A stretch of 64,000 nucleotides of DNA from a bacterium (GTDB lineage: Bacteria > Armatimonadota > Zipacnadia > Zipacnadales > UBA11051): assembly GCA_021372615.1 (NCBI GenBank), contig JAJFUB010000018.1, forward strand, positions 8,193-72,192. The letters run 5' to 3'. Made by a program: the position numbers and the translations under genes. How positions within the stretch are numbered: position 1 is the first letter of the stretch; the number at the start of each line of letters is the position of its first letter. The notes below the pieces were generated by a model that ran no database searches, was not told where the DNA came from, and saw only the letters and a list, made by a program, of their open reading frames with translations. Below, piece by piece: positions 9,441 to 33,568 of this stretch.

Positions 9441-9546
9441 AGGTGGAGGATTCTTTGTGAAACTTCGTTCACAAATGCTAGTTCTGGGGTTTTGCTGTAC
9501 CTGCGATTATGGAGAGACGAATCAACACACACGCCGGGGACCTGTG

Positions 9547-11313
9547 ATGGAGCATGTGGATGAAGCGCGCACCAGAGCTGAACATGGGGGGCGGCACCGG
9601 AGGGTCTATGACGAGTGGCCGGTCGGGGTGCGGAGGTTCACGCAGGAGCGGCAGTACCTGGGGCTCGGCGACGAAGTGTACCCCCGCATCCTTGATACGC
9701 TGAGCCGCATCTTCCACGGGAAGTATGAGGAAGCAGCGCTGTGCTGGGGGATTGGATCGGGGAAGTCGTTCCTGTGCTCGCTGGCGCTGCTGTACATGGT
9801 GTACCGCACGCTGTGTCTGCGGGACCCGCAGCAGTACTACGGCCTGGCCGAGGGGAGCCCGATCCATATCGTGACGGTCGGGCCCACGGCACGCGTGGCC
9901 GAGAAGGCGATCTATGGCCAGATCCGCGGCATGGTGTCGCGGTCGCCGTGGTTCGCCGACAAGTACCCGGCCGACACCCGGACACGCCGCGAACTGCACT
10001 TCCCCAAGCATGTGGAGGTGCTGCCCGGGAACTCCAGCGACCTGTTCCCGCTGGGGCTCAATGTGCTGTGTGCGACCATGGACGAGGCAGCCTTCTTCGT
10101 CGAGACCCAGAGCGGCGGGCAGGAGGCAGCCGAAGAGGTGTACCTCGCACTGCAGCGGCGCATCAAGTCGCGGTTCGGTAGCCGGGGGCTCGTGCTAATC
10201 GCGTCCTCCCCACGGCACGGCGAGGACTTCATCATGCAGAAGCTGGCCGAGGCTGAGACGAACCCGACCGTCTTCGCGTCGCGCAAGGCCACCTGGGAAG
10301 TCAAGCCCGGCTTCAGCGGAGAGACGTGCGTCGAGGGCGGCCTGGAGGTGCCTGTGGAGCTGGCCGGGGAGTTCCGGCGCAACCCGCAGAAAGCGCGCCG
10401 TGACCTGGCCGCCCAGCCCGGAGCGGCGTACCAGCCGTTCTTTGTGGACATGGGGGCGCTGGAGGCGGCGTGCGGTGGGGCGCGGGACGGCGACGGCAAC
10501 GGCGTCCCACCCCCTGCCCCCTCCGCACGGGGGAGGGGGAACGTCAACGAGAACGTCAACGTCAACGGCGACGGCGTCCTCACCCCTACCCCTCTCCCTC
10601 GCCCGCCTTCGCCCTCCGGGCTACGGCAGGCTCCGGAGAGGGGAACGGCTGACGACAACGGCGGCCTACCCCGTCAGCGCTGCGCGCTGACACCCCTCCC
10701 TGGTAGGGAGGGGAAGGGCAACGGCGTGGAGGTGCGGCATCCGTTTGCGGAGGAGGGGAGGCTGGCGGATTGGTTCCGGCCTGATGATGCGGTGCCGCGC
10801 TATGTCCATATAGACCTGGGCCTCAAGAAGGACGCCTGCGGCATGGCCATGGCCAAGGTAGTCAGCGAGGGCGGGCAGCCTGTCGCGGTGGTCGAGCTGA
10901 TGCTGCAACTAACGGCACCGGCGGGCGGTGAAGTGAACCTCGCCACGCCACGGGAAATCGTGCTCGCTCTGCGCCGGCGAGGGTTCCCCATCGGCCAGGT
11001 GAGCTACGACGGATGGCAGAGCGCCGATAGCCTGCAGATCCTGCGCCGACACGGCGTGCGCGCGGTGACCGTGTCCGTGGACCGCGACCTGGGAGCGTAT
11101 GAGACGCTCAAGGAGCTGGCCAATGACGGGCGGCTGCGCATGTACCCCTTCAAGCCGTTCCTGGAGGAGTGCCGTCGGCTCGAACTGATCCAGGGGACCA
11201 AGGTGGATCACCCGGCCCATGGGTCCAAGGATGTGGCCGACGCGGTGGCCGGGGCGGTGAGCGAGGCGGTGAAGGCCTGGGGGGGGACGGATGTGAGGGG
11301 GAGGATCGTGTGA
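9547..11313 (+). CDS. terL: phage terminase large subunit (ATPase plus RNaseH-like nuclease). The inter-domain linker carries an in-frame palindromic repeat insertion.
   Basis: Walker A GIGSGKS, Walker B/catalytic VLCATMDEAAFF, C-terminal nuclease-like domain (YVHIDLGLKKDACGMAMAKV...DGWQSADS...DHPAHGSKDVADAV). The ORF track starts at 9457 and the first ATG is at 9475. An internal Met at 9547 (MEHVDE) is preferred but the start is uncertain. Repeat segment 10486-10725 translates as a low-complexity G/N/P-rich linker. Confidence 0.8.
   Translation: MEHVDEARTRAEHGGRHRRVYDEWPVGVRRFTQERQYLGLGDEVYPRILDTLSRIFHGKYEEAALCWGIGSGKSFLCSLALLYMVYRTLCLRDPQQYYGLAEGSPIHIVTVGPTARVAEKAIYGQIRGMVSRSPWFADKYPADTRTRRELHFPKHVEVLPGNSSDLFPLGLNVLCATMDEAAFFVETQSGGQEAAEEVYLALQRRIKSRFGSRGLVLIASSPRHGEDFIMQKLAEAETNPTVFASRKATWEVKPGFSGETCVEGGLEVPVELAGEFRRNPQKARRDLAAQPGAAYQPFFVDMGALEAACGGARDGDGNGVPPPAPSARGRGNVNENVNVNGDGVLTPTPLPRPPSPSGLRQAPERGTADDNGGLPRQRCALTPLPGREGKGNGVEVRHPFAEEGRLADWFRPDDAVPRYVHIDLGLKKDACGMAMAKVVSEGGQPVAVVELMLQLTAPAGGEVNLATPREIVLALRRRGFPIGQVSYDGWQSADSLQILRRHGVRAVTVSVDRDLGAYETLKELANDGRLRMYPFKPFLEECRRLELIQGTKVDHPAHGSKDVADAVAGAVSEAVKAWGGTDVRGRIV
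10486..10725. repeat. family-1 composite element inserted inside terL
   Basis: CCACCCCCTGCCCCCTCCGCACGGGGGAGGGGG. (AACGTC/AACGGC) hexamers. CCTCACCCCTACCCCTCTCCCTCGCCCGCCTTCGCCCTCCGGGCTACGGCAGGCTCCGGAGAGGGG. CACCCCTCCCTGGTAGGGAGGGG. Confidence 0.8.
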
Positions 11314-11319
11314 AGGAGG

Positions 11320-11570
11320 AGGCCGACCCTCACCCCCGGCCGCTCTCCCAGAGGGAGAGGGGAGCAGACGGCGGGGGTTGAAACCCCCGCCTGACGGGGA
11401 GGCGTCCCTCCGGGACGCCGGGACGGCAACGGCAACGGCGTCCTCACCCCTACCCCTCTCCCTCGGCCCGCTGCGCGGGCCTCCGGAGAGGGGAACGGCA
11501 ACGACGGCCTACCCCAGCCCTGCGGGCCACCCCTCCCTGAAGGGAGGGGGGAACGGCAACGACGGTGACG
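11320..11570. repeat. family-1 composite element between terL and portal (modules A, B and C)
   Basis: GGGGGTTGAAACCCCCGCCTGACGGGGAGGCGTCCCTCCGGGACGCC (module A, two short hairpins). AACGGC hexamers. CCTCACCCCTACCCCTCTCCCTCGGCCCGCTGCGCGGGCCTCCGGAGAGGGG. CCACCCCTCCCTGAAGGGAGGGGGG. Confidence 0.8.
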
Positions 11571-11719
11571 ACGGCGGTGTACGGGCGGCTCGGAAGCGAG
11601 GCGCTCTGTTCGGTTCTGGTGGGACGATGTGATGCTCTGACGGGGTCAGCCCCCCAGAGGACCGGATGCAGCCGGTCTTCCGGGGACGGACCCCACCCCG
11701 TACAGGTGGAGGCGAGGCA

Positions 11720-13090
11720 ATGTCGGATCTCGTGAAGGCGCAGGTTGTGGGGACGGACGGCAGAGGCGTGAGCAAGCAGTTGCCCGACTCGCCCTGGCAT
11801 GAGGCCTACGCACGGGGGGAAGTGGTGGAGCCCCCGTATGATCTGGAAGCGCTGGCAGCGCTGTATGAGACGAACTCGACCCACAAGGCGTGCGTGGACG
11901 CCAAGACCATCAACATCGTGGGGCTCGGGTACCGGTTCGTGCCCGTCGGGGGCGAGCGTGAGGCCGACAGCGGCAACCTGGCGCTGCTGCAGCACCTGTT
12001 CGACAACTCCAACCCCGAGATGACCTTCACCGAGGTGCTGCGGGCCGTGTGGACCGATGTGGAGTGCCTCGGGAATGGGTACCTGGAGTTGACCCGCAAC
12101 AGCCGGGGGCAGATTGACGGGATGTACCACGTGCCCGGGACGACGGTGCGGGTGCTGGCCGACCGATCCGGGTTCGTGCAGGTGCGCGACGGGAGGAAGC
12201 GGGTCTTCCGGAATGTGGGTGGAGAGCCGGTCGCGGTCGGTGACCGCTCCCACAACAGCACACAGGACGGGGGCGACGGGGGGCGGGGGGCGACTGCCAG
12301 CCTGGCAGATCATAGCGGGCGGGGTACGAGCGCCGCCCTGGCAGACCACAGTGGGCGGGGTACAAGCCCCCGCCCTACAGGGGACGCGGGCGAACAGAAT
12401 GAGGTGCTGCACTTCATGAAGTACACGCCGCAGTCCTCGTACTACGGGGTGCCCGACATCATCCCGGCGGTGTCCGCAGTGGCCGGCGATAAGGCGGCGC
12501 GCGAGTACAACATTGACTTCTTCAGCCACAACGCAGTGCCCCGGATGGCGATCATCGTCGAAGGGGGCGAGCTGTCCGAGGGCGTGGTGACGCAACTCAA
12601 GCACTTCATGGAGAGTGAGATCAAAGGGCATGGGCACAAGACGCTGGTGCTCGAGGTGCCCGGCGGCGGCGCCAACGTGAGGCTCGAGAAGCTCACCGTC
12701 GGAGGCTGCGAGGATGCGGCGTTCCTGGAGTACCGTCGGGCCAACCGGGATGAGGTGCTGCTGGTGCACCGCGTCCCGCCCAGCAAAGTGACCGTGGTCG
12801 AGAACGCCAACCTGGCCAACAGCAATGACCAGGACAAGACCTTCCGCGAGCAAGTCGTGCGGCCGGAACAGCGGCGGATCGAGTACCGGTTGAACCGGCT
12901 GGTGCGCGAGCAGCTCGGGATCGGGGACTGGGCCTTCCAGTTCAGGGAGATGGACCTGTCCGAGGCGCGCGAGGAGGCCGAGGTGGCTGCCATCTATGCC
13001 GGGATCGGAGTGCTGAGCGCGGAGGAAATCCGGGGGCGGCTCGGGATGGTGGCGTCGCCTGTGGCCCAGGCCGTCAGCGCTGGGCGGTGA
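11720..13090 (+). CDS. phage portal protein (HK97-like family)
   Basis: Immediately downstream of terL. 457 aa with a portal-like central region (KTINIVGLGYRF, YYGVPDIIPAVSAVAGDKAAREYNIDFFSHNAVPRMAIIVEGG). GGTGGAGG RBS before the ATG at 11720. The ORF contains a family-3 palindrome and an imperfect 36-bp tandem duplication (12234-12375). Confidence 0.7.
   Translation: MSDLVKAQVVGTDGRGVSKQLPDSPWHEAYARGEVVEPPYDLEALAALYETNSTHKACVDAKTINIVGLGYRFVPVGGEREADSGNLALLQHLFDNSNPEMTFTEVLRAVWTDVECLGNGYLELTRNSRGQIDGMYHVPGTTVRVLADRSGFVQVRDGRKRVFRNVGGEPVAVGDRSHNSTQDGGDGGRGATASLADHSGRGTSAALADHSGRGTSPRPTGDAGEQNEVLHFMKYTPQSSYYGVPDIIPAVSAVAGDKAAREYNIDFFSHNAVPRMAIIVEGGELSEGVVTQLKHFMESEIKGHGHKTLVLEVPGGGANVRLEKLTVGGCEDAAFLEYRRANRDEVLLVHRVPPSKVTVVENANLANSNDQDKTFREQVVRPEQRRIEYRLNRLVREQLGIGDWAFQFREMDLSEAREEAEVAAIYAGIGVLSAEEIRGRLGMVASPVAQAVSAGR
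12234..12375. repeat. family-3 palindrome (GGTCGCGGTCGGTGACCGCTCCCACA) plus an imperfect about 36-bp tandem duplication, inside the portal ORF
   Basis: Encodes ...SLADHSGRGTSAALADHSGRGTS... Family-3 copies at 6405, 35704, 37690-37765 (two inverted copies) and 51395. Confidence 0.7.
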
Positions 13091-13300
13091 GGGGCGGGGG
13101 GCAAGGGCGGGGGTTGAAACCCCCGCCTGACGGGGAAGCGTCCCTCCGGGACGCGGACGGAGGACGGCAACGGCGGCCCACCCCCTGCCCCCTCCCCACA
13201 GGGGAGGGGGAACGGCAACGGCAACGGCAGCAACGACGACCTACCCCCTGCCCCCTCCCTACAGGGAGGGGGGACGGCAACGACAACGGCGAACGGCGGT
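13091..13300. repeat. family-1 composite element (modules A, B and C twice) between portal and protease
   Basis: GGGGGTTGAAACCCCCGCCTGACGGGGAAGCGTCCCTCCGGGACGC. CCACCCCCTGCCCCCTCCCCACAGGGGAGGGGG. CTACCCCCTGCCCCCTCCCTACAGGGAGGGGGG. Confidence 0.8.
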
Positions 13301-13324
13301 GGCGCGCAGGCGAGCTGAGAGACA

Positions 13325-13801
13325 TTGGCGGGCTTGGAAGGTGATGGAGTGGCGGACGAGACGACCGCGGCGGAGTGGCAGTTCGAGGGCGTCGCGTCCA
13401 GCACCAGGCTGGACCGGCAACGGGAGAAGATCAGTAAGGGGGCGCTGCGACAGGTAGCGCAGAGAGGGCCCGTGGACCTGGTCGCGGCGCATAACGAGCG
13501 AGAGGTTGTGGTCGGCAGAATCGAGACGTGTGAGGTCGAGGGGGAGCTGCTGCGGGTCCGCGGGCGGCTGCGCGTGGACGCGCCCGAGGCCCGGGAGCTG
13601 CGACAACGGCTCGCGCGGGGCGAGAGGCTGGGGCTCAGCCTGGGCGGCAAAGTGAGCCGGGCCCACTGGGGCTGGGACAGCAATACCGAGGGACCCGTCC
13701 GGCATCTGGATGAGGTGGCCGTCGAGCATGTGGCGGTGTGCCGAGCGGAGCAAGCCGTGAACCCGGATGTGCGAGTACGACTAGTTGAGGGTGAGCAGTG
13801 A
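13325..13801 (+). CDS. prohead protease, HK97/U35-S78 family (start uncertain)
   Basis: FEGVASSTRLDRQREKISKGAL and LVAAHNEREVVVGRIE resemble the conserved S/H blocks of HK97 gp4-type proteases. It sits between the portal and major capsid genes. Confidence 0.5.
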   Translation: MAGLEGDGVADETTAAEWQFEGVASSTRLDRQREKISKGALRQVAQRGPVDLVAAHNEREVVVGRIETCEVEGELLRVRGRLRVDAPEARELRQRLARGERLGLSLGGKVSRAHWGWDSNTEGPVRHLDEVAVEHVAVCRAEQAVNPDVRVRLVEGEQ

Positions 13802-14217
13802 ACGGTGTGGTGCGCCGGATAGCCGAGAAGCTGCGGTGGGCGTGGCGGAGGCGACGAGGTGAGGACAAACGAGGGGACGACCTGGCCGAACGGCTCGGAC
13901 AGATCGAGGAGAAGCTGAGGGAGATCGAGGCGAGCATGCAAGCCGATGGCGGAGGCGCGACAGTGACGACGGGCAGCCAGCAGGCGCAGGAAGAGCGGGG
14001 ACCGGAGGTGTGGGAGGCGGCGGGGACGACGCCCCGGCCGCTGGTGGAGCGCACCGCAGTGCTGGCGAAGGCACAGCGGGCCGGAGACATCGTCCTGGCG
14101 GGCGATGAGGACGTGGCAGACGAGACGATGGTCGAGGTCAGGCCCGGAATGCCCCAGGGGCTACCGGGACAGCAGGCGCGGCGGAAGGCGGCGCGATTCT
14201 GGGAAGGGGTGCTGTGA
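13798..14217 (+). CDS. hypothetical phage protein (possible scaffold/decoration), charged and helical
   Basis: GTG start overlaps the protease stop (GTGA). Stop overlaps the capsid ATG (TGAATG). EKLREIEASMQ coiled-coil-like segment. Confidence 0.35.
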   Translation: MNGVVRRIAEKLRWAWRRRRGEDKRGDDLAERLGQIEEKLREIEASMQADGGGATVTTGSQQAQEERGPEVWEAAGTTPRPLVERTAVLAKAQRAGDIVLAGDEDVADETMVEVRPGMPQGLPGQQARRKAARFWEGVL

Positions 14218-15159
14218 ATGAGTGTCGAGGAGATGCTGCAGAAGGCCATTGACACGACGGATCTGGCGGCCGGTGGGCTGCTGGGGCCGGAGCAGTCGCG
14301 GAAGTTCACCGACTTGGTCATTGACCAGTCGGTGATGCTGCAGGAGGCGCGCGTGGTGCGGATGCGGTCGGCAGTGACCGAGATCGACCGCATCGCCACC
14401 GCCGGCCGGGTGAGCCAGCTCAAGAGCGAGGGCGTGGCGCCGAGCACGCTGGCCGAGCCCGCGTTCTCGAAGGTGACGCTGACGGCGGTGGATATCATCA
14501 CCCCGTTCGAGCTGACCTTCGAGGCGCTCGAGGACAACGTCGCAGGCGGGAACCTGGAGGATACGGTGATCCGGGTCATGGCCAAGCAGACGGCGACGGA
14601 CCTGGAGGAGCTGGCGATCAAGGGCGACGTCACGTCGGGCGACACGTTCCTGGCGGGCATGAACGGCTGGCGCGTGCTGGCTGACGGCGGCCACGTGGAG
14701 GACCTGGCGGGCGCGACGCTGGACAAGGGCGCGCTGAGCGCGATGTTCCGGGCATTGCCCGACAAGTACAAGCGCAACTACGGGGACCTGCGCTTCTACT
14801 TCGCGCCGACAGTGACCCAGGACTGGCATGACACGTTCGCCGACCGCGGCACCAGCGCGGGCGACAAGGCGCTGCTGGGCGCCCAGGTGCCGCCGTACAT
14901 GGGCGTGCCGCTGGTGACCGTGCCGACCATCCCCACGAACCTGGCCGGGGTGAGCGGGACCACGGGCACGAACCTGAGCTACGGGTTCCTGACCCCGCGC
15001 GACAACCTGATCTTCGGCATCCACCGGGAGATCCGCATCGACAAGGACCGCGACGTGCTGCGCGGTGTGAACATCTACGCGATCACCACCCGTGTGGCCG
15101 TGGAGTTCGAGAATGACGATGCGGTGGTGCTGGCGGTGAATGTCGGGAAGACGGCGTAG
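14218..15159 (+). CDS. phage major capsid protein, HK97 fold
   Basis: 313 aa. Gene order is terminase, portal, protease, capsid. HK97-MCP-like blocks are present (TATDLEELAIKGD, GMNGWRVLADGG, PTVTQDW, DVLRGVNIYAITTRVAVEFENDDAVV). Confidence 0.75.
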   Translation: MSVEEMLQKAIDTTDLAAGGLLGPEQSRKFTDLVIDQSVMLQEARVVRMRSAVTEIDRIATAGRVSQLKSEGVAPSTLAEPAFSKVTLTAVDIITPFELTFEALEDNVAGGNLEDTVIRVMAKQTATDLEELAIKGDVTSGDTFLAGMNGWRVLADGGHVEDLAGATLDKGALSAMFRALPDKYKRNYGDLRFYFAPTVTQDWHDTFADRGTSAGDKALLGAQVPPYMGVPLVTVPTIPTNLAGVSGTTGTNLSYGFLTPRDNLIFGIHREIRIDKDRDVLRGVNIYAITTRVAVEFENDDAVVLAVNVGKTA

Positions 15160-15335
15160 GGGCGGGAGAGGGAGAGGGCGGGGGTTGGCCCCCCCGGGAA
15201 GCGGGGCGGCAACGGCGGCCCACCCCCTGGCCCCCTCCGGAGACGCTGCGCGTCTCGCAGGGAGGGGGAACGGCAACGGCGACGACAAGGGCGGGGCCTG
15301 CGGCTCGTTCTGGGCCGCAGGCCTCTGCATGAGTG
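15160..15335. repeat. family-1 element plus an extra hairpin (GGCCTGCGGCTCGTTCTGGGCCGCAGGCC) after the capsid gene
   Basis: CCACCCCCTGGCCCCCTCCGGAGACGCTGCGCGTCTCGCAGGGAGGGGG. Confidence 0.75.
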
Positions 15336-15345: not shown

Positions 15346-15729
15346 ATGAGACGGAAGCGATGGGCAGGACTGATTGCGGCAGTGTTGGTGCTGAGCTGTA
15401 GCGTCGGGCTGGCTGAGGATCTGGTGCTGTCGGTAGGGGCGGTTGGTGGGATCGCGCCGGATGGTGTGGTGGGGCCTGAGCTGTCGCTGCGGCTCCTGCC
15501 GCTGAAGGGCAGCACGACAGGACAGGGAACGCCATATCTGTGGCTCGATGTGGCGGCGACGACTGACGACTTCTCGCAGTGGGGCGTGATGACAGGACTG
15601 AGCGCGGACCTCGCGGCGGTGAGCAGTCTGACAGCCGGGATCGCACAGCGAGGCGGGTTCGGACGGGACTGGACGCGCGAGGTGTGGGTGCTGTATGTCA
15701 GCCGGAGCTTCTCGTCGCTGTTTGAGTAG
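15346..15729 (+). CDS. small secreted hypothetical protein (signal peptide)
   Basis: N-terminal MRRKRWAGLIAAVLVLSCSVGLA signal-peptide-like segment. GGAG RBS. Confidence 0.4.
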   Translation: MRRKRWAGLIAAVLVLSCSVGLAEDLVLSVGAVGGIAPDGVVGPELSLRLLPLKGSTTGQGTPYLWLDVAATTDDFSQWGVMTGLSADLAAVSSLTAGIAQRGGFGRDWTREVWVLYVSRSFSSLFE

Positions 15730-23234: not shown

Positions 23235-23519
23235 TTGGCGGAGGTGCTGGAGGGTGAGCTGCCGGCCCCGACCGTGCGTGTGCACGAGGGGGTGGACTTC
23301 ACCGACGCCCGGGAGGCGGCGGCGCTGCTGGGGACGGAGAAGCCAGTGGCTGTGCGCGTGCCGGCGTGGGCGCTGATGACGGTGGCGGTGCTGCGCGAGC
23401 TGTGGAGGCATGAGGTGACGGGGCAGTTGCCCGGAGGCAGGGCGTGCACGGAGCAGCCGGCGTGGAAGGTGGCGCTGTGGGAAGCGTACTGGCAGGCAAG
23501 GGGAGTGAGGCTGAGGTGA
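23235..23519 (+). CDS. hypothetical phage protein (candidate upstream ORF of a -1 frameshift pair)
   Basis: 94 aa. Its 3' end overlaps ORF 23444-24187, which lies in the -1 frame relative to it. Confidence 0.3.
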   Translation: MAEVLEGELPAPTVRVHEGVDFTDAREAAALLGTEKPVAVRVPAWALMTVAVLRELWRHEVTGQLPGGRACTEQPAWKVALWEAYWQARGVRLR

Positions 23520-24274: not shown

Positions 24275-24450
24275 GTCGGGGGTTGAAACCCCCGCCTATG
24301 GGAAGCGTCCCTCCGGGACGCGGACGGCGACGGCGACGGCAACAGCGACGGCGGCCTACCCCGGCCCTGCGGGCCACCCCTCCCTGAAGGGAGGGGTAGA
24401 GGCAACGGCTGCCTACCCCCTCCCTGAAGGGAGGGGGGAACGGCAACGAC
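24275..24450. repeat. family-1 composite element upstream of the large structural gene
   Basis: GGGGGTTGAAACCCCCGCCTATGGGAAGCGTCCCTCCGGGACGC. (GGCGAC)n. CTACCCCGGCCCTGCGGGCCACCCCTCCCTGAAGGGAGGGG twice. Confidence 0.8.
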
Positions 24451-27331: not shown

Positions 27332-27640
27332 ATGGCGACCATAGCCGGCCTGACGTACCCCACGATGGTCGAGCACAACGGGGTCATGTATGTGACCGGG
27401 TACCGCGAGGGCGGGGTGTATGTACGGCGGACCGCGGACGGCGGGGTGACGTGGCTGAAGTTCAGCGACGGAGCGGAAGAGCGGCTGGTGTGCGCGCCGG
27501 CGGATGAGGCACGGGCGGGGCTGGTCAAGATGGAGAGCCAGGGGCGGCGCCTGATGGCCGCGGTGTCGGTGGCGCCGGATATCGCCATCTATGTGAGTGC
27601 GGATGATGGGGAGACGTGGGGGTTCGAGGCGACGGTGTGA
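27332..27640 (+). CDS. BNR/Asp-box repeat protein. Possibly a C-terminal continuation of the upstream gene, separated from it by a single TGA.
   Basis: TADGGVTW and SADDGETW Asp-box repeats. The ATG lies 2 nt after the stop of 24480-27329, which itself ends in an Asp-box. Confidence 0.4.
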   Translation: MATIAGLTYPTMVEHNGVMYVTGYREGGVYVRRTADGGVTWLKFSDGAEERLVCAPADEARAGLVKMESQGRRLMAAVSVAPDIAIYVSADDGETWGFEATV

Positions 27641-28115
27641 GGGCCCTCACCCCCTGGCCCCCTCTCCCAGGGGGAGAGGGGGGAAAGGCGAACGGCGGGA
27701 GCGGGATGCCATGGCACAGCGTGCAGAGGACTCTTGACGCGACTCCGCCCGTCTTCGCCCTGTGGCTACTACGGCGGAGCGCGGGGGTTGAAACCCCCGC
27801 CTGTCGGAAGCGTCCCTCCGGGACGCGGGACGGCAACGGCAACGACAACGGCGTCCTCACCCCTACCCCTCTCCCTCGCCCGCCTTCGCCCTGCGGGCTA
27901 CGGCGGCGGAGCGCGGGGGTTGAGACCCCCGCCTGTCGGAAGCGTCCCTCCGGGACGCGGGACGACAACGGCAACGACAACGGCGTCCTCACCCCTACCC
28001 CTCTCCCTCGCCCGCCTTCGCCCTGCGGGCTACGGCGGGCTCCGGAGAGGGGAACGGCAACGACGGCCTACCCCGGCCCTGCGGGCCACCCCTCCCTGAA
28101 GGGAGGGGAACGGCA
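27641..28115. repeat. largest family-1 repeat island, containing a near-perfect tandem duplication of an about 127-bp unit (27769-27900 and 27896-28030)
   Basis: The unit is CTACGGCGGAGCGCGGGGGTTGA[A/G]ACCCCCGCCTGTCGGAAGCGTCCCTCCGGGACGCGGGACG[G/A]CAACGGCAACGACAACGGCGTCCTCACCCCTACCCCTCTCCCTCGCCCGCCTTCGCCCTGCGGG. Only 2 mismatches between copies. Confidence 0.8.
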
Positions 28116-28157
28116 GGCGGTGACGATGGACTGCGGTGACGAGGATTGGAGGGGCTT

Positions 28158-30449
28158 GTGAGTTCACGAGTGCATCCCATAGCGCGGTTGCGGGTGTATG
28201 AGGCCGGGGCGGAGCCGCGGGTGCGGTATGACGGCTTCGGTCAGTATGATGTGGCCGGGGAAGTGATGCAGAACGCCGAGACGCTCGTCAGCCCGGTGGA
28301 CCCCGTGGCCCTCGGGCTGTGGGAAGGCATGGGCTATCCGGCGCTGCTGCCGTCCGCGCTCCATGTGCCCGCCGAGGGCATCAACAGCGTGATCTGTCGG
28401 CCCTTCGCCGACACGTCGCAGAGCATCGGCCTGGGGCACTTCGACACGGTGGGGGGCACGTGGGAGGCGCTGCGCGGACTGGGGCTCAACCAGGAAGTCA
28501 AGCTGTACCAGTCCGACGGCACGAGCAACATGACCACCGGGCTGGTGAGCCGGTTTGCCTTGCCGCGCAACCCCATCTTCGCCGTGTCGCTCTACCGGGC
28601 CGAGCCCGGGCCCGACCATGACTGGTCGCAGCCACCATACACGGAGATCCACTTCGGGGTGAATGGCAACGACGAGTGGGCGATCCTGCTGCCGTACACG
28701 CAGAGCCTGGAGGTGCTGCGACGCACGCAGGCGGGATGGCGGGTGGTGCCCAGCCGGCGGACCAGCGCACCGCTGGGGCTGACGGAAGGCCATGCGCGCG
28801 GGCAGCGGCTGGTGCTGTGGGTGGCGGTGCTGCGCAACAAGCTGGCGCTGTCCACGGATGGGTTCCAGCGGCATGTGTGGACCTATGAAGACAGCGAGCC
28901 GGCCGTGGTGAAGAGCGGGAAGCTGACCGTGTGGCACAACGCCGGACAGTGGGCCGTGTCGCTGCTGCCGGCCAAGATGGCGCCGGCGGTGGTCTACAGC
29001 CCGCCGATTGAGACGGGGTTCCTGACCCGGGCGTCGAGCGGAGCAGTGCTGGTCGAGGGGCGGATGATGCCGGTGCTCGATGACGACCTGCAGATCCTGG
29101 CCACGCCCCTCATCATTGATGACAGTGGGACGCGAGCGGGGCTGAGCGAAACGCAGCGGTCGTGGAAGGTGCAGATCAACCCGTTCCGGTACCGGCAAGA
29201 GGCGGTGGGGGTGGACCCGGACACCGAGGAGACGGTGGACTTCGAGACGTGGCTGTCGCCGGAGTGGCTGTCGGCGCAAGTGGCCCAGGCGGCAGAACTG
29301 AGCGCCGGCGAGGAGCCCGTGTATCAAGACCTATCGGCCGATGCGCTGGCCGTGGAGGGGGAACACGCGGCAGACAAGGTGACCGCGAAGTACCGAGTGG
29401 CGCTGGACAACCAACAGGGGCAGCACAGCACGCTGCAGGAGAACCGGCGGACCAGCCTAGCGCTCGGGTGGCGGATGAGTGACGGAACGGAGGCGCTGGC
29501 GGGGATCGTGGACGGGCACCTGGTGGAGCCGCCGGTGCGGATGGCCGCCGGCGGGATGAGCGAAGCGGTCATCAACGTGCTGGACCCGATGCTGCGCCTG
29601 CGGGACGAGAAGGCCGATGGCCGCACGCCAGTGTTCGACGGGTGGCTGGTGCGCGAGGTGTTCCGGTGGGTGCTGGGGCGGTGCGGTGTGCCCGAGAGCG
29701 AGCAGGACCTGGAGGACACCGGGACCGTGCTGAGCACCGGCACGGTGGAGGAGCCAGCCTGGCAGGTGGAGCCTGGGCGGTCGTGGGCGGAGTTCCTCGA
29801 GCAGGTGGCTGAGTTCGACTACGGCGCCGCGATCCACTTCGATGAGGTCGGCGCGTTCCGCAAGACCTGCGGGTACTGCCGGCAGAAGCGCACCGCCGCC
29901 AATGTGACGACCCATGACGGGACGCTGACCGGGGCGTGCGACAATCAGGTGCGTTGGGAGCTGTACACGCGCGCGCAGGCCGCGCCCCAGAGCCAGGCGC
30001 CGGGCGAGGTGCTCGGTCTGCGGCGGACCCGGCGAAGCCTGGCGCCCGAGGAGTACGCCAACTACGTCGTGGTGTGCGGCGTGGACGAGGACGGGCGGCC
30101 AGTGCGCGCCACGGCGTTCGACGCGGCGTCGCTCTATGACCCGCAGTCCGAGCGGTATGTCGGCTGGCGGAAGATGGATGTGACGACCGTGCCGGGGTAC
30201 ATGACGCCGGCGGAGGTCAACCGTCTGGCGCTCGACCGCCTGCAGGAGCTGGGCACGCGGCCCGAGCACGTGACCGTCGTGACGCCGCTGCTGCCGGAAG
30301 TGCGGATCGGCCAAGTCATGCGGATCCACGGCGGCGAGACCGTGGGCGTCGCCGGAGAGCTGTACCGGGTGCAGGCGGTGCGGCATGAGGTGCGGCGGCG
30401 ACCGCATGAGGTGGCGGTGACGACGTTGGAGGGGCGCTGGCTGGGGTGA
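28158..30449 (+). CDS. large hypothetical phage structural protein (about 760 aa)
   Basis: GGAGGGG RBS then GTG at 28158; the ORF track uses TTG at 28146. Long ORF with ordinary, non-low-complexity amino-acid composition. Confidence 0.5.
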   Translation: MSSRVHPIARLRVYEAGAEPRVRYDGFGQYDVAGEVMQNAETLVSPVDPVALGLWEGMGYPALLPSALHVPAEGINSVICRPFADTSQSIGLGHFDTVGGTWEALRGLGLNQEVKLYQSDGTSNMTTGLVSRFALPRNPIFAVSLYRAEPGPDHDWSQPPYTEIHFGVNGNDEWAILLPYTQSLEVLRRTQAGWRVVPSRRTSAPLGLTEGHARGQRLVLWVAVLRNKLALSTDGFQRHVWTYEDSEPAVVKSGKLTVWHNAGQWAVSLLPAKMAPAVVYSPPIETGFLTRASSGAVLVEGRMMPVLDDDLQILATPLIIDDSGTRAGLSETQRSWKVQINPFRYRQEAVGVDPDTEETVDFETWLSPEWLSAQVAQAAELSAGEEPVYQDLSADALAVEGEHAADKVTAKYRVALDNQQGQHSTLQENRRTSLALGWRMSDGTEALAGIVDGHLVEPPVRMAAGGMSEAVINVLDPMLRLRDEKADGRTPVFDGWLVREVFRWVLGRCGVPESEQDLEDTGTVLSTGTVEEPAWQVEPGRSWAEFLEQVAEFDYGAAIHFDEVGAFRKTCGYCRQKRTAANVTTHDGTLTGACDNQVRWELYTRAQAAPQSQAPGEVLGLRRTRRSLAPEEYANYVVVCGVDEDGRPVRATAFDAASLYDPQSERYVGWRKMDVTTVPGYMTPAEVNRLALDRLQELGTRPEHVTVVTPLLPEVRIGQVMRIHGGETVGVAGELYRVQAVRHEVRRRPHEVAVTTLEGRWLG

Positions 30450-30828
30450 GAAGGCAGTGCAGAACGCTGAACGATGAATGATGAATGGGGTGGTGGGTGA
30501 TGGAGCTGGTGCAGATCGTGCGGCGGGTGGTGGACCGGCAGGTGCGGCCGGCGCTGGGCGGCGGGGCGACGACCGCCAGTGGGCGCGCTGCGGGCGCGGC
30601 CAAGGGGGGAGGGAACCGCTTCCTGATGCGGGTGGCGGCAGACGGGGCGGTGCTGAGGCGAGCGGTGTATGGGCGAGGGCGGTACGGGGTGGAGCGGTAC
30701 CTGTCGGGGTAGCGGCAGGTGAACGGCGGAGGCAACGGCGGGCGGGCTGGGAAGCCCGCGGTCCCAGTAACGACATGCGGCGTGCCGGCGGGAAGCCGGC
30801 GTGCCTACGGCACACGGCGAGGTGAGCC

Positions 30829-31530
30829 ATGGCGGGAACGACAGAGCATTACGGGTTGGCGGTCGGTGTAGTGACCGATGACATTGTGGAGCCGGACCAC
30901 CACAACCGGGTGGCGGCGACGCTGGACCGCGTGCTGGGCGGGGCGCTCAGAAGCCTGGTCGCCGACGGGGCGTACAGCGGGTGGCTGCTCAACACGTCAG
31001 GCGCGGTGACGGCGGGCGAGGGGCTGGTCGCGGGGTGCTGGTGCAAGACCACCGCCGACGCGGCCATTACCGGCCTGACGAGCGGGGCCACGAACCATGT
31101 GTTCGCCCGGAGCAACAGCGGGTCGGCGCCGGATGGGACGGTGGACTTCGCGGCGCAGTTGTCCGCGGAGAAGCCAGCCGGTGCGGTGTACCTGGGGACG
31201 GCCGAGGTGGACTCGGGCGGCGTGGTGACGGCCGTGGACAATGCGGCGGCCGGCGTGGACCGGAACTGCCTGAGGCTGGAGATCGGCCAGGCGGCCGGCA
31301 GCGGGACCGTCGCCAGTGTGCCGGCGGCGGGGACGTTCAGCGTTGAGATCACCCATGCGCTGAGTCTGCTGGTGCCCGGGGCCATCGCGTTCAGCTCGCA
31401 GAGCGCGAACTTCACCTGGGAGCTGCAGGAGACGTGGCGGGGCGATGGGTTCAAGGTGAGCGGCACGAACAACGGGGCCGAGGCCGCGGACCTCGTGTAC
31501 GCGTGGACGAGGCGAGGGCTGGTGGGGTAG
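30829..31530 (+). CDS. hypothetical phage protein (tail-fibre-like, G/A/S/T-rich)
   Basis: 233 aa, rich in small residues, last large gene before the lysis cassette. Confidence 0.35.
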   Translation: MAGTTEHYGLAVGVVTDDIVEPDHHNRVAATLDRVLGGALRSLVADGAYSGWLLNTSGAVTAGEGLVAGCWCKTTADAAITGLTSGATNHVFARSNSGSAPDGTVDFAAQLSAEKPAGAVYLGTAEVDSGGVVTAVDNAAAGVDRNCLRLEIGQAAGSGTVASVPAAGTFSVEITHALSLLVPGAIAFSSQSANFTWELQETWRGDGFKVSGTNNGAEAADLVYAWTRRGLVG

Positions 31531-31555
31531 CGAAGGCGAGTGGGGCGGGGGCAGT

Positions 31556-31610
31556 CGGGGGTTGAACCCCCCGCCTGGGGGGAAGCGTCCCTCCGGGACG
31601 CCGGGGGGAG
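31556..31610. repeat. family-1 module A solo copy
   Basis: GGGGGTTGAACCCCCCGCCTGGGGGGAAGCGTCCCTCCGGGACGCC. Confidence 0.75.
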
Positions 31611-31628: not shown

Positions 31629-31964
31629 ATGGCCGAGATGACGCGACTGTGGGAGCAAGTGGGGCCTGAGGTGCGGAGCTTCCTGTGGCTGACGCTGGCA
31701 GGGGTGCTCGGGGCGCTGGCGACCGTGGCGCTGGAGCGCAGGCCGATCGTGCCGCCACGGGTGCGACGCGGGGCGCTGCACCTGGGGTTCGCCGGCACAT
31801 GCATCATCTCGCTGGTGGCGGCGCATGCGGTGGATCACAGTTTCAGCACGGCGCTGGTGGCGGCGGTGTGCGGCGGGGCGACCCTGCGGCGACTGAAGGC
31901 ACAGATTGATCGGGGCTTTGAGCGGGAGCACCGGCGACTGGACGGTGAGGGCGATGGGACATGA
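31629..31964 (+). CDS. small membrane protein (holin/lysis-accessory candidate)
   Basis: Two hydrophobic segments (FLWLTLAGVLGALATVAL and LGFAGTCIISLVAAHAV). Stop overlaps the next ATG. Confidence 0.4.
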   Translation: MAEMTRLWEQVGPEVRSFLWLTLAGVLGALATVALERRPIVPPRVRRGALHLGFAGTCIISLVAAHAVDHSFSTALVAAVCGGATLRRLKAQIDRGFEREHRRLDGEGDGT

Positions 31965-32292
31965 GGCGCTCACGGCACTGGTGCCCGGGGCGGCGGAGGC
32001 GCTGCTGGTGGGGCTGGGCCTGGCCGTGTGGGCGAGGCTGCGGCAGCTCGGCGTCGGCGGCGTGTATCAGGTGACGGCGGCTGCCATCGTCACGGACGCC
32101 GTGAGCCAGACATGGCAGTTGTGGCTGCGACTGGGCCGGCCGGCCGGGGTAGTGTGGCTGCTGCACACCGCGGTGTGCGCCTTGCTGCTGTATGTGCTGT
32201 ACCGGCTAGGGTACCTGCTGGCGCGCAGGCGGCGGATGTGTCCGCCGGTGGCGCTGATCGAGGAGCAAGTGCTGGCGGAAGAAGGAGGCTAG
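31954..32292 (+). CDS. small membrane protein (holin/lysis-accessory candidate)
   Basis: Hydrophobic helices (ALLVGLGLAVWARL and VVWLLHTAVCALLLYVLYRLGYLL) followed by a basic tail. Start at 31954 is coupled to the upstream stop. Confidence 0.4.
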   Translation: MGHEALTALVPGAAEALLVGLGLAVWARLRQLGVGGVYQVTAAAIVTDAVSQTWQLWLRLGRPAGVVWLLHTAVCALLLYVLYRLGYLLARRRRMCPPVALIEEQVLAEEGG

Positions 32293-32296
32293 GCGA

Positions 32297-32590
32297 GTGG
32301 CTGAGATGGTGAAGGAGTGGTTGGTGCAGGTGGTCGTGCCGGGGCTGGGCGCGGCGCTGCTGGTGGCGGTGATCTCGTTCGTGCGGCAATACGCGGCGCA
32401 ACTGAAGGACGAGAAGATGCGCCAGGCGCTGCTGGCGCTGGTGCAGGCCGCCGAACAGCTCTATGGCGCAGGCAAGGGCGAGGCGAAGCGGCGGTTCGTG
32501 CGCGAGAAGATGAAGCAGAAGGGCCTGGAGGACCTGGGGCGTGAGGAGCTGGAGGCGGCGGTGTACAAGCTGAAGGCGGAAGGCAGTTAG
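32297..32590 (+). CDS. holin-like protein (N-terminal TM helix plus charged C-terminal helix)
   Basis: WLVQVVVPGLGAALLVAVISFV TM segment, then a Lys/Glu-rich tail. Immediately upstream of the endolysin. Confidence 0.45.
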   Translation: MAEMVKEWLVQVVVPGLGAALLVAVISFVRQYAAQLKDEKMRQALLALVQAAEQLYGAGKGEAKRRFVREKMKQKGLEDLGREELEAAVYKLKAEGS

Positions 32591-32625
32591 GAGTTAGGGG
32601 TTAGGAGTTGGGAGTGAAGGCGGGG
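32588..32625. repeat. G-tract spacer (TTAGGAGTTAGGGGTTAGGAGTTGGGAGTG) after the holin-like gene
   Basis: Seen directly. Confidence 0.5.
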
Positions 32626-32668
32626 CCGCTGCCGAGAGGTGGCGGCCCCGTATTGTTGGTTCCGGAGG

Positions 32669-33568
32669 ATGAGGATGATACGGCTTGAGGGGCTGTCGCT
32701 GGTGGTCGAGGCGTTCCTGCGCGACCAGGGCTTCCGCGTGGACAGCGAGGCGGCGGGGTCGGCGCAGATCGTCGGGATTCGGGGAGCGCGGATCGTGCGC
32801 GCGGCAGACGGGGAGGTCCAGGGCCTCAGCATCCTTCCGAGCCCGACGGCCATCACCGATCGCTATGATGACGCCATCTTCGTGTGTGGCCGCAAGGCCG
32901 GCGGCGAGCGCTACGCAGATGTGTTCCAGGCATCGCTGCAACCCGGCCGGGCGAGCTTCGCCCTGGCGCACTACCGGAACCGGGGCTGTCCCATCGTGCA
33001 GCCGGGGCAGTACCAGTATGGCAGAGGCCTGCACAACCCGCCCAGCGGTCAGTCCTACCCGGCGCTGCGGCAGCGGGCCGCCATCGTCGTCGTGCGCGAC
33101 TACGACCAGGATGCGCTGCAGGAGGCGACCGACCGGTGGGACTACCCGGCCAGCGGGCTGAACATCCACGCCGGCGGCGCGTCCGAGAGCGTGGGGCGCT
33201 GGTCAGAGGGCTGCCAGGTGATCCGGGGGGGACGCGGTGCCGGGAGTCCCTGGAGCCGGTTCCGCCGCCTCGTCTACGAGGTCGCGGCACCCCAGAGCGT
33301 GTTCCACTATGCGCTGGTGGACGGCGAGTTCTTCGGCAAGTGGTTTGACGCGGGGGGCGCATCGCGGAGCGATGCGGGCACGCGGAGAGCGGTGCGGCGG
33401 CTGTGGTTCGGGTCGCACGGGGAGCGTGTGGCGGAGCTGCAGGAGCGGCTGGTGAAGCTCGGGCACTACCATGCCGGCGGCGTGGACGGGGAGTTCGGCG
33501 TGAAGACCCACATGGCGGTACGGCGGTGGCAGGCGGCGGAGGGGAAGGCAGTGACGGGAGTCGTTTGA
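32669..33568 (+). CDS. endolysin: cell-wall hydrolase with a C-terminal peptidoglycan-binding (PG_binding_1) domain
   Basis: C-terminal RRLWFGSHGERVAELQERLVKLGHYHAGGVDGEFGVKTHMAVRRWQAAEGKAVTGVV matches the PG_binding_1 pattern. The N-terminal catalytic fold is not assigned. GGAGG RBS. Confidence 0.6.
   Translation: MRMIRLEGLSLVVEAFLRDQGFRVDSEAAGSAQIVGIRGARIVRAADGEVQGLSILPSPTAITDRYDDAIFVCGRKAGGERYADVFQASLQPGRASFALAHYRNRGCPIVQPGQYQYGRGLHNPPSGQSYPALRQRAAIVVVRDYDQDALQEATDRWDYPASGLNIHAGGASESVGRWSEGCQVIRGGRGAGSPWSRFRRLVYEVAAPQSVFHYALVDGEFFGKWFDAGGASRSDAGTRRAVRRLWFGSHGERVAELQERLVKLGHYHAGGVDGEFGVKTHMAVRRWQAAEGKAVTGVV

Follow-up and report, generated by a model that had tools for sequence, protein, structure and literature searches.

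Among described systems, RcGTA of Rhodobacter capsulatus (Rhodogtaviriformidae, Alphaproteobacteria) is encoded by a chromosomal, HK97-like siphovirus-derived head-tail cluster with the gene order terL-portal-protease-capsid-adaptor-stopper-terminator-tube-chaperones-short TMP-tip. The cluster has no integrase or replication module, it evolves vertically at host-like rates, and in some members of the RcGTA type part of the functions is encoded outside the cluster. The locus described here, a string of phage head, tail and lysis genes at 9547-33568 (+ strand, ~24 kb) of a 64-kb window (the whole stretch of DNA analysed), is alike in these respects. In contrast to RcGTA, whose cluster is ~15 kb, it encodes holin-like proteins of its own and usually also a lysin, contains an 1136-aa LamG protein in the head module, has a hub with a lectin domain and without a recognised peptidase, and in the present lineage carries no TerS gene at the locus. 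No sequence relationship to RcGTA is detectable beyond HK97-family membership; the sole PDB sequence match of the portal, the RcGTA portal, is very weak (E 0.007).

At ~28 kb, PBSX of Bacillus subtilis is likewise a domesticated phage locus, and it too combines genes for packaging, particle structure and lysis. Its tail is contractile, and the locus includes TerS as well as linked regulators, namely xre and a late sigma-like factor, whereas the present locus encodes a tube without a sheath and has neither a linked regulator nor TerS. The host DNA fragments packaged by PBSX are smaller than its locus, 13.4 kb (PMC12946183). FpGTA of Faecalibacterium, a recently proposed GTA-like element outside the Alphaproteobacteria, was recognised, as was the present locus, by a clade-conserved structural operon without phage early genes (PMC12946183). 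FpGTA is podovirus-like, with operons of 10.5 kb and 5.5 kb and packaged DNA that was long-read sequenced (PMC12946183), whereas the present element is siphovirus-like, contiguous and predicted from sequence; the RcGTA side of our comparison draws in part on PMC12946183.

All late-gene families, their order and the G/GT -1 frameshift chaperone are shared with temperate siphovirus prophages (HK97/lambda-like late region). In contrast to such prophages, the locus is without integrase, immunity, replication and terS genes and without an att/tRNA site, and its truncated content is alike in all relatives and co-diverges vertically with the host. We propose, at a probability of roughly 0.6, that the block is an anciently domesticated siphovirus-derived locus, vertical in the Armatimonadota, the phylum of the host, kept functional by selection and working as a gene transfer agent (GTA). 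A domesticated locus of this kind would be a viriform in ICTV terms. A literature search found no GTA reported in Armatimonadota.

Extent of the locus and flanking genes

A first-pass annotation had described a head-tail-lysis block of ~24 kb. The Pfam and PHROG assignments agree that this block is real, with essentially the same coordinates, and the hydrogenase operon and DUF1559 gene placed to its left are seen as a HydABC-type FeFe hydrogenase and a DUF1559 prepilin-like gene (8449-9180). On the right the block is followed by GFO/IDH/MocA oxidoreductase, aldolase, ADH and SDR genes. Between the DUF1559 gene and terL lies one spacer, in which there is no terS:

9181-9546, + strand: left boundary spacer of GC-rich hairpin repeats (families D1, D8 and D13); its translation is repeat-derived

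Across the scanned ORFs of the 64-kb window, Pfam gave no integrase, recombinase, repressor or replication protein, seven of the flanking-gene ORFs having no Pfam match of any kind; for the genes in and beside the block, neither Pfam nor PHROG pointed to replication, integration or regulation. The window has no tRNA. These scans agree with the earlier description of a window free of integrase, regulator, replication genes and tRNA. There were no Rfam matches. The lack of a linked regulator at the locus counts against the GTA reading. The composition of the block is host-like (codon-usage r 0.95; delta* 51 vs 39-43 in controls).

Several ORFs listed in the first pass are translated GC-rich hairpin repeats and not genes (11378-11632, 13087-13344 and 27616-28161), and the same is true of the ORF extension 9457-9546 and the first 96 codons of the 24192 ORF. 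The palindromic repeats had been considered alike inside and outside the block; they are instead enriched inside, where all copies of modules B, C and E (10/10, 9/9 and 6/6) and 9/11 copies of module A are found.

Head module

9547-11313, + strand: TerL, with ATPase and RNase-H-like nuclease domains (phrog_2 4e-10; dN/dS 0.13)
11720-13090 (ORF from 11666), + strand: portal, HK97 family (PF04860 2.4e-39; phrog_12 3e-57; dN/dS 0.11)
13325-13801, + strand: prohead serine protease S78 (PF04586 3.7e-8; dN/dS 0.06)
13798-14217, + strand: scaffold-like small protein, by its position between protease and capsid; ORF present in a close relative
14218-15159, + strand: HK97-fold major capsid protein (PF05065; phrog_1623 2.5e-80; dN/dS 0.07)
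15346-15729, + strand: small secreted protein, a moron, with an N-terminal hydrophobic signal-like segment
15959-19369, + strand: 1136-aa protein, LamG/pentraxin-like at the N-terminus and GH78-type Ig at the C-terminus (PF13385, PF25788)

TerL has no Pfam match. Its true start is probably the ATG at 9547, in the ORF opening at 9457. In an alignment with relatives the Walker A and Walker B motifs and the nuclease aspartates are conserved. A repeat-derived in-frame insertion of ~83 aa (~10486-10734) is located in the interdomain linker; it is common to the close relative L112, absent from L004, L014, L011, L026 and L005, and keeps the reading frame in both genomes that carry it. The scaffold-like protein is poorly conserved in sequence (dN/dS 0.57 on 84 codons). 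The secreted protein is lineage-specific, being kept in L112 (dN/dS 0.08) and not found in distant relatives. The 1136-aa LamG protein (dN/dS 0.13) has PDB profile matches to 6i60, 3w5m and 3flp, and in every relative its gene is flanked by those for the capsid and the adaptor. This protein may be a capsid- or neck-borne adhesin.

Connector, tail and lysis genes

19363-20016 (ORF from 19351), + strand: head-tail adaptor (phrog_442 2.7e-14; 44-50% identity in relatives)
20201-20548, + strand: small connector, stopper/head-closure by position (weak tblastn matches in L009, L014 and L030)
20830-21513, + strand: tail terminator-like/completion protein (weak PF20765 match, 0.003; 38-56% identity, 17 loci)
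21648-22562, + strand: major tail tube, siphovirus non-contractile type (PF18906 1.5e-14; 56-76% identity in relatives)
22705-23519, + strand: tail assembly chaperone pair of the lambda G/GT type, by sequence (G at 22705-23196)
23444-24187, + strand: short tape-measure candidate, ~250 aa, Arg/Gly/Ala-rich, by position after G/GT
24480-27329, + strand: 949-aa all-beta tail protein, with pilin/adhesin-like Ig strings, an invariant four-Cys motif and two C-terminal sialidase/BambL-like propeller blades
27332-27640, + strand: 102-aa Asp-box (BNR) protein (faint BNR match, two Asp-box motifs; 44-69% identity in relatives)
28146-30449, + strand: tail (baseplate) hub, gp27/Mu gp44-like fold with an inserted legume-lectin/GH16-like jelly roll
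30485-30712, + strand: conserved 75-aa protein (68-75-aa gene at the same position in L028, L029, L030, L115 and L116; dN/dS 0.24)
30829-31530, + strand: conserved 233-aa tail-associated protein (48-61% identity in 7 loci; dN/dS 0.23)
31629-31964, 31954-32292 and 32297-32590, + strand: three small membrane proteins, holin-like (2, 2 and 1 TM segments by hydropathy)
32675-33568 (ORF from 32639), + strand: lysin (C-terminal PG_binding_1, PF01471 2e-12; N-terminal phrog_3000 1e-20; dN/dS 0.16)

The position of the small connector is occupied in L116 by a 116-aa gene. At the end of the G gene, a slippery heptamer A_AAA_AAC is found at 23187-23193, from which the -1 frame runs on to 23519; the G/GT arrangement and an EGxDF...QPAWR motif in the -1 frame are kept in L004, L008, L023, L029 and L030. 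The tape-measure candidate has no Pfam or PHROG family match, and its C-terminal LELxR motif is conserved in L004, L008, L030 and L023. With a siphovirus-type tube, a G/GT chaperone and a short tape-measure candidate in place, the earlier view that no tape measure was recognisable and that the tail type was unclear no longer holds. A tailocin-like particle, which had also been suggested, does not match the locus: selection has kept capsid, portal, protease and terminase conserved, and the tail is of the non-contractile type.

The product of 28146-30449 is the tail hub, as assigned by fold. From its position, the 949-aa protein may have a tail-tip, receptor-binding role, and the 102-aa Asp-box protein could form a two-blade propeller unit. 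The 1045-aa (24192 ORF) and 767-aa proteins carry invariant four-cysteine and CxxC...H...C motifs. The 233-aa protein has no PDB or family match. The three small membrane proteins are holin-like by size, topology and position; the trio (dN/dS 0.06-0.25) is conserved in L028, L029 and L117, and the L115 orthologue has a faint Phage_holin_6_1 match. The lysin slot is non-orthologous or empty in other species, with an Amidase_2 in L028, L029 and L118 and no lysin at L030, L116 and L117, which counts against the GTA reading.

The abundance of sugar-binding domains raises the possibility of an exaptation without DNA delivery, in which the locus serves programmed lysis or yields a surface-binding nanoparticle in biofilm/polysaccharide biology. 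Carbohydrate-binding modules are indeed unusually rich (LamG, GH78-type Ig, the lectin jelly roll of the hub, sialidase/BambL-like blades), and the locus endolysin is dispensable in some species. We consider such an exaptation unlikely, as it leaves the purifying selection on terminase, portal and tail-assembly genes, including the frameshifted chaperone, unaccounted for.

Relatives and vertical descent

The same gene string, with terL first, is present in ~30 loci, and all of those that carry a name are Armatimonadota MAGs; these locus counts come from pattern-based scans that are incomplete and are not a prevalence across the phylum. When one genome per GTDB species was scanned, 26 loci were obtained, of which 21 bear an Armatimonadota title, one the title candidate division WS1 and four just 'bacterium'. 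The relatives are mostly MAG contigs, and the survey covers locus-linked genes. Another clade has a conserved TerS-like gene (~200 aa) ahead of terL. None is present at the locus here, and this counts against the GTA reading with respect to packaging initiation.

Host genes directly adjoin the block in the relatives: ilvD/ilvB and leuD at the Zipacnadum locus, jag-yidC-rnpA-rpmH at L030, yidD-yidC-jag at L118 and Usp/M48 at L029. The early module or integrase that the first pass had proposed to look for beyond the block is absent in the three loci with both flanks visible, and neither an integrase nor an att repeat or tRNA site turned up at these three loci or in 8 more left and 5 more right flanks. 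The GFO-aldolase-ADH-SDR right flank is common to the window, L115 and L117, and in L117 identity is 71-84% for the host flank proteins and 43-71% for those of the block. A left flank of GT9 and membrane-protein genes is common to five species, with flank proteins 31-79% identical; for terL, portal and capsid the identities are 69-80%, 75-83% and 80-91%, and their ranking is concordant with that of the flank. A comparison of L030 with L118 gives 43-48% identity for YidC and Jag and 45-60% for the proteins of the block. Block proteins diverge to about the same extent as the host proteins next to them.

The capsid has 144 homologues at 59-98% identity, and all named ones are from Armatimonadota. 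The family is discrete, with at least 59% identity inside and at most 43% outside. Among 1.84 billion cluster representatives it is represented by one full-length sequence (372 bits), the next matches reaching at most 197 bits and 43% identity. In cultured phages, capsids are at most 34.6% identical among the matches listed, and terL about 31-33%. The nearest relatives among phages, siphophages of Vibrio (80 kb) and Streptomyces (130 kb), share 31-35% identity, so that the locus would have been domesticated independently in another phylum. In IMG/VR the capsid family is represented by two short fragments only.

A still-mobile element would be the late region of a phage or satellite that spreads horizontally, with excision, replication and regulation supplied by a helper, the host or unlinked functions. 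The chromosomal site does differ between clades, some relatives have a TerS-like gene beside terL, and morons have been inserted, for example a GT9 gene at L029 and, in the window, the gene for the small secreted protein. We regard this as improbable: the visible loci and flanks show no integrase, att repeat or tRNA site, species with host proteins at 31-84% identity have flanks in common and diverge concordantly in them, and the family is almost absent from IMG/VR. Moreover, there is no known tailed phage of 24 kb that lacks early genes altogether.

Selection and gene integrity

Compared with a 92%-identical relative, 14 of 15 block genes have dN/dS values of 0.06-0.25, similar to those of flanking host genes (0.08 and 0.16). 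Pseudogenisation in relatives was sought as the first pass had advised. No frameshift or truncation was found in terL (12), portal (18), tube (17) or hub (8), where single-stop flags in three portal alignments and one tube alignment were taken, without individual checking, for alignments that overran the start. Capsid ORFs are intact in 32 of 33 cases, the only frameshift in this gene being that of L026, and the LamG ORF is intact in 20 of 21 loci; overall, >95% of ORFs are intact across relatives. Single lineages do show decay, which counts against the GTA reading: L026 also has no G chaperone, and in L118 the LamG gene is split.

The option of a late-region remnant left open in the first pass is effectively excluded by the intact ORFs, the low dN/dS and the conserved gene content. 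A functionless, decaying late region of an ordinary prophage would explain the missing early genes, the entry of repeats into intergenic gaps and terL, and the occasional broken genes in relatives. It is highly improbable given identical boundaries and gene content in ~30 loci from divergent species, dN/dS values equal to those of host genes, a terL insertion that stays in frame, and co-divergence with the flanks down to 43% YidC identity. The domesticated, GTA-like alternative that had also been offered is instead supported by the gene content shared by these loci, the synteny of their flanks, purifying selection and intact ORFs.

Proposed function

A host-maintained, DNA-packaging particle locus is well supported, above all by the comparison with relatives, and action as a GTA is most likely its function. 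As read from the genes, the set should suffice for a tailed, DNA-filled particle and lysis of the producer cell. We propose that a subpopulation of cells would express the operon, under host control from elsewhere in the genome. TerL would fill proheads by a headful mechanism, the DNA taken up would not be that of the locus in particular, and the holins and lysin would set the particles free. Lectin-like and adhesin-like tip proteins, together with the LamG protein of the head module, may then bind the surface polysaccharide of neighbours. With delivery of the packaged DNA to a neighbour, the locus would act as a GTA.

The same genes could also produce a PBSX-like killer particle that packages host DNA incidentally and is selected for killing competitors or for a lysis-linked benefit (eDNA, nutrients). 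Its genomic signature (structural and lysis genes only, vertical descent, purifying selection) equals that of a GTA, lectin-like and adhesin-like domains are abundant at the tail tip, and PBSX, which is treated as GTA-like, packages 13-kb host fragments (PMC12946183). Killing and transfer look alike at the level of sequence. The linked repressor, late-gene regulator and contractile tail of PBSX are nevertheless all absent here, and the strong conservation of the terL nuclease/ATPase motifs and the portal suggests that DNA filling itself matters. We therefore hold the killer particle to be a rather unlikely explanation, though less so than exaptation or continued mobility. [quoted passage not shown]

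Gene content and cellular surroundings of the block

The phage-derived head-tail-lysis block proposed in the first-pass annotation is borne out by Pfam and PHROG matches, TerL motifs and hydropathy, which place it at 9547-33568 on the + strand.

Assigned genes of the block
From 9547, +: large terminase (TerL), phrog_2 (4e-10), without a Pfam match
In block, +: portal of the HK97 family, PF04860 (2e-39)
In block, +: S78 prohead protease, from family search
In block, +: HK97-fold capsid protein of 313 aa, PF05065; phrog_1623 (2.5e-80)
Head module, +: 1136-aa protein with LamG and GH78-type Ig domains, from family search
In block, +: head-tail adaptor, phrog_442
In block, +: tail terminator, weak match
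In block, +: siphovirus-type tail tube, PF18906
Right end, to 33568, +: lysin with a PG_binding_1 domain, from family search

Three small membrane proteins, recognized by hydropathy, precede the lysin, and alignment with relatives shows the Walker A, Walker B and nuclease aspartates of TerL to be intact. The gene set thus comprises a full head, connector, tail and lysis complement on a host chromosome. The main genes of the first-pass ORF list stand, but the ORFs at 11378-11632, 13087-13344 and 27616-28161 are translations of hairpin repeats and not genes; the starts of two further ORFs (9457-9546, and the first 96 codons of the ORF beginning at 24192) likewise translate GC-rich hairpin repeat.

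The flanks are cellular, as had been noted. A HydABC-type FeFe hydrogenase and a DUF1559 prepilin-like gene lie to the left, and a convergent GFO/IDH/MocA oxidoreductase followed by aldolase, ADH and SDR genes to the right. Host genes are found on either side in the window and in relatives, on contigs reaching 380 kb. The G+C content is 65-72% all along the window in 2-kb windows, and the host-like composition described earlier was recovered (codon-usage r 0.95; delta* 51 versus 39-43 for controls).

A functional temperate prophage has an integrase, att sites, an immunity switch, replication genes and terS, a set of which nothing was detected here. In agreement with the first-pass annotation, family searches of the scanned window ORFs gave no match to an integrase, recombinase, repressor or replication protein, and a tRNA scan found no tRNA gene in the 64 kb. 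Neither attL/attR, nor an immunity or lysis-lysogeny switch, nor terS was detected in the window; the only direct repeats common to both block ends are members of dispersed hairpin families. No linked regulator was found in the window, and an Rfam scan of it was empty. An early module (replication, integration/excision, self-regulation) is absent from the window, from three fully visible relatives and from 13 further single flanks.

Two observations on the surrounding DNA are recorded here. The left-flank operon at 2802-8304, with NuoE-like, NuoF/GltD-like and HydA genes, encodes an FeFe hydrogenase of the electron-bifurcating type in this member of the Armatimonadota; for the 77 marine MAGs of the phylum surveyed in PMC10290634, no such FeFe enzymes were reported. 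At 53714-53837 there is an imperfect tandem repeat with start-to-start spacing of alternately 27 and 12 nt, which lies within a - strand ORF (53657-55387, 576 aa, without a Pfam match).

Tail and tip proteins

The 163-aa gene 3' of the tube ends in GCG AAA AAA AAC TGA. The A_AAA_AAC heptamer (23187-23193) has the canonical form of a -1 slippery site, and no stop closes the -1 frame before 23519. The same arrangement, with a conserved EGxDF...QPAWR in the -1 product, is present in five relatives carrying the gene string (L004, L008, L023, L029 and L030). A slippery heptamer joined to a conserved -1 ORF is the signature of the lambda G/GT chaperones, here a predicted programmed frameshift in an Armatimonadota element. 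The following ORF (23444-24187), rich in Arg, Gly and Ala, shows little conservation but has an LELxR C-terminus that relatives keep; judged from its position, it is a candidate short tape measure. As a rule of thumb a tape measure accounts for ~0.15 nm of tail per residue, so ~250 aa would predict a tail of ~35 nm.

The 1045-aa ORF beginning at 24192 has a real core of 949 aa, whose predicted model (pLDDT 83) is all-beta: pilin/adhesin-like domains follow one another, with two sialidase/BambL-like propeller blades at the end. The 102-aa Asp-box protein encoded next to it resembles another unit of two blades. From their gene position, we infer a tail-tip, receptor-binding role for both proteins. 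Pfam and PHROG scans of the unassigned tail genes gave no match, and profile searches of PDB sequences returned nothing useful for the ~765-aa tail hub (28146-30449), the 1045-aa protein, the capsid or a 233-aa protein. It is noted that in L004 a 102-aa BNR/Asp-box homologue, 60% identical, lies between terL and portal (L004:7126-7431), where it replaces or adds to the usual copy 3' of the 1045-aa protein.

The first-pass view that the tail type was unclear and a tape measure unrecognizable is superseded by the tube, the G/GT slippery site and the short tape-measure candidate. The block combines a sheathless tube, a frameshift chaperone of the G/GT kind, a candidate tape measure and a hub resembling gp27, the marks of a siphovirus-type (non-contractile) tail. 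Since no sheath protein was found in the block, the particle is predicted to be siphovirus-like and structurally complete. A tailocin of the R or F type, being a tail-only particle, is excluded by the conservation of head and packaging genes: the block keeps capsid, portal, protease and terL under purifying selection.

Vertical inheritance, selection and intactness

Divergence of the block was compared with that of its flanks. Between the window and L117, a relative sharing the right flank, host proteins are 71-84% and block proteins 43-71% identical. Among five species with a common left flank, the membrane protein is 31-46% and GT9 orthologues are 67-79% identical, with TerL at 69-80%, portal at 75-83% and capsid at 80-91%; the species pairs rank in the same order as for the flank proteins. 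Two divergent species with the block beside yidC-jag, L030 and L118, give 43% for YidC, 48% for Jag and 45-60% for block proteins.

Nei-Gojobori dN/dS values, calculated against two contigs ~92% identical in DNA (L112, L115), are 0.06 for the protease, 0.07 for the capsid, 0.10 for the hub, 0.11 for the portal, 0.13 for both the C-terminal half of TerL and the LamG protein, 0.16 for the lysin and 0.06-0.25 for the small membrane proteins; flanking host genes give 0.08 and 0.16. Shared flanks, concordant divergence, dN/dS of 0.06-0.25, intact ORFs and a discrete capsid family together show vertical inheritance under purifying selection, as expected of a gene transfer agent (GTA).

Screening all family loci for intactness revealed only two genes that are clearly disrupted: the capsid gene of a Ca. 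Zipacnadum vermilionense locus (L026), which has a frameshift, and the LamG gene of L118, which is split into three ORFs (L118:2003-5209). Both Zipacnadum loci also lack the G chaperone; their signs of decay lie at L026:10001-10848 and L028:5797-6552. These disruptions point to local decay in single lineages, or may be MAG sequencing errors. The screen raised four more flags for single stops, in alignments of portal and tube, which were read as alignment overrun. Internal-stop flags in portal, adaptor and tube were attributed, on the evidence of query coordinates and not of stop positions, to alignments that run 5' of the true start into the stop of the preceding gene. It should be mentioned that in the assembly L113 (ERZ925387) a CxxCxxCC gene stands in place of terL (L113:1-620). 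Loss of terL was rejected, given that the junction falls exactly at a repeat cluster and that terL is present in L112, the sister assembly; the junction is probably an assembly chimera.

Hairpin repeats

Composite GC-rich hairpin repeats, all in + orientation, fill nearly every intergenic gap of the block (9257-33635).

Repeat clusters of the block
Left part, +: 9257-9430, 10477-10661, 11331-11630, 13091-13290, 15203-15300, 20006-20200
Right part, +: 20547-20800, 22599-22710, 24277-24450, 27648-28110, 31538-31605, 33591-33635

The repeats had been described as the same inside and outside the block, which is contradicted by their distribution over the 64 kb: modules GGGGGTTGAAACCCCC and GTCCCTCCGGGAYGC are confined to block intergenic gaps (10/10 and 9/9 copies, all in + orientation), a third module is likewise block-restricted (6/6), and 9 of the 11 copies of module A lie inside. 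The repeats are specific to the species group of the window, being present in ~92%-identical relatives and absent from distant ones. Possible reasons for their enrichment and orientation are REP/MITE-like spread, a role as mRNA processing or stability elements, or a link to packaging. One cluster is carried in frame by terL (10486-10734), adding ~83 residues to the ATPase-nuclease linker. The 92%-identical L112 shares the insertion, also in frame, and L002 carries an independent, shorter one at this position. The linker appears to be permissive.

Distribution, gene order and boundaries in relatives

Capsid homologues number 144, at 59-98% identity, and for the hub as for the 1045-aa protein there are 70-80 of full length, at 43-96%; in every case all that bear a name are from Armatimonadota. 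Scanning a single genome for each GTDB species gave 26 loci, titled Armatimonadota in 21 (Armatimonadia, Ca. Zipacnadia, unclassified), candidate division WS1 in one and 'bacterium' only in four. The source records of family loci are sediment and other environmental metagenomes.

The string conserved in tblastn runs from terL, first at every mapped locus, through portal, protease, capsid, LamG giant, adaptor, small connector, terminator-like gene, tube and chaperone to the short tape-measure-like gene, the 945-1070-aa protein, the 100-aa BNR protein, the ~765-aa hub and proteins of ~74 and ~233 aa, and closes with small membrane proteins and an optional lysin. The lysin slot varies, holding PG_binding_1 in the window and Amidase_2 in L028, L029 and L118, and being empty in L030, L116 and L117. 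Cargo genes occur within the block, namely a GT9 glycosyltransferase in L029 (L029:13515-14570) and, in the window lineage, a small secreted protein (15346-15729) under strong purifying selection (dN/dS 0.08).

Host genes begin immediately beyond the string in relatives, and no integrase, replication or regulatory gene was found at any relative locus whose boundaries were viewed.

Host genes bordering the block
Upstream of terL, Zipacnadum vermilionense: ilvD, TPR protein, ilvB
Upstream of terL, five species: GT9 glycosyltransferases, membrane protein, M14 peptidase
Upstream of terL, L004 and window: DUF1559
Downstream, Zipacnadum: leuD
Downstream, L029: Usp and M48 peptidases
Downstream, L030: jag-yidC-rnpA-rpmH
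Downstream, L118: yidD-yidC-jag
Downstream, L116: caspase-like peptidase
Downstream, L115, L117 and window: GFO-aldolase-ADH-SDR

In L030 (L030:14713-18004) and L118 (L118:19427-22148), the block adjoins rpmH-rnpA-yidD-yidC-jag in opposite relative orientation. This cluster usually lies near the replication origin.

Taken together, the identical boundaries in dozens of species, the host-like rates, dN/dS far below 1 and the repeat insertions kept in frame cannot be explained by a decaying prophage remnant.

Candidate small terminase

In the CSMAG/Zipacnadum clade, a conserved gene of ~200 aa lies directly 5' of terL (L011:4340-4966; L017:4270-4890; L018:3385-3990; L026:5569-6066; and four metagenome loci, L120-L123). 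By this position it is a TerS candidate; Pfam, PHROG and profile searches found nothing for it, and when its alignment was compared by hhalign with the gene that precedes terL in Vibrio phage D4 the probability was 2%. The gene is absent from the window locus, where tblastn of the window found none, and from its nearer relatives; a metagenome scan for unlinked copies returned only ones directly 5' of terL in the same clade. The lack of a linked TerS may be taken as only suggestive of random host-DNA packaging.

Relationship to known phages and GTAs

Among the matches listed from 50,697 cultured phage records, the closest capsids are ≤34.6% identical (Streptomyces phages of ~130 kb, Agrobacterium JP1 and Vibrio phages of ~80 kb). 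TerL matches the same phage groups at 31-33%, and for the tail tube BLAST finds no match among these records. In IMG/VR the family is represented by two short fragments only, all else being ≤36% identical. An exhaustive phmmer search of 1.84 billion cluster representatives returned one full-length family representative (59% identity, 372 bits), followed by matches of ≤197 bits and ≤43% identity. The near absence of the family from viral collections, the shared flanks and the lack of a recombinase or att site fit poorly with a mobile phage or satellite.

The RcGTA-like family (Rhodogtaviriformidae) is defined by RcGTA head-tail homology and an alphaproteobacterial host; the block falls outside it, and its host belongs to Armatimonadota. 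The capsid profile had no match among PDB sequences, so the RcGTA capsid was not found, and the block portal reached only E 0.007 against the RcGTA portal Rcc01684.

Known GTAs are few, and each is apparently an independent domestication. A 2026 survey names as their hosts only Alphaproteobacteria, Desulfovibrio, Brachyspira and Methanococcus, together with new Faecalibacterium candidates (PMC12946183). Considering these hosts, and that neither GTAs nor domesticated phages are described for Armatimonadota in the literature searched, we judge the block to be an independent phage domestication in another phylum.

Discussion

The pattern of the block matches the genomic definition of a GTA, which is its predicted function. 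Functionally, a GTA would be marked by packaging of random host DNA in sub-genomic fragments shorter than the encoding locus, by transfer and by host regulation; that the particles kill, as PBSX does, or serve some other exapted purpose is a less likely possibility. For the GTA reading in its full form we propose, at a probability of about 0.4, that Armatimonadota own an ancient, still active and independently domesticated GTA that would constitute a new viriform family. Its ancestor would be related to large lytic siphophages, with vertical inheritance across classes (Armatimonadia and Ca. Zipacnadia). The particles would package random host DNA without a dedicated TerS, and would target recipients via lectin-like tail-tip proteins and the giant LamG adhesin of the head module. 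Unusual features of the block are a head module with a giant LamG protein, lectin-rich tip proteins and the lack of a linked TerS.

A further GTA family conserved over deep divergence in a little-studied phylum would show that domestication of phages into DNA-packaging particles is commoner than thought. Its dozens of orthologous loci with host flanks would give a clean comparative set on element maintenance. For prophage predictors, viral-looking contigs of the family, including the two in IMG/VR, would be host loci and not viruses. The family would also mark a concrete route of gene exchange in Armatimonadota-rich communities and, if the proposal is true, capsid-mediated gene exchange would be intrinsic to a phylum that is largely uncultured.
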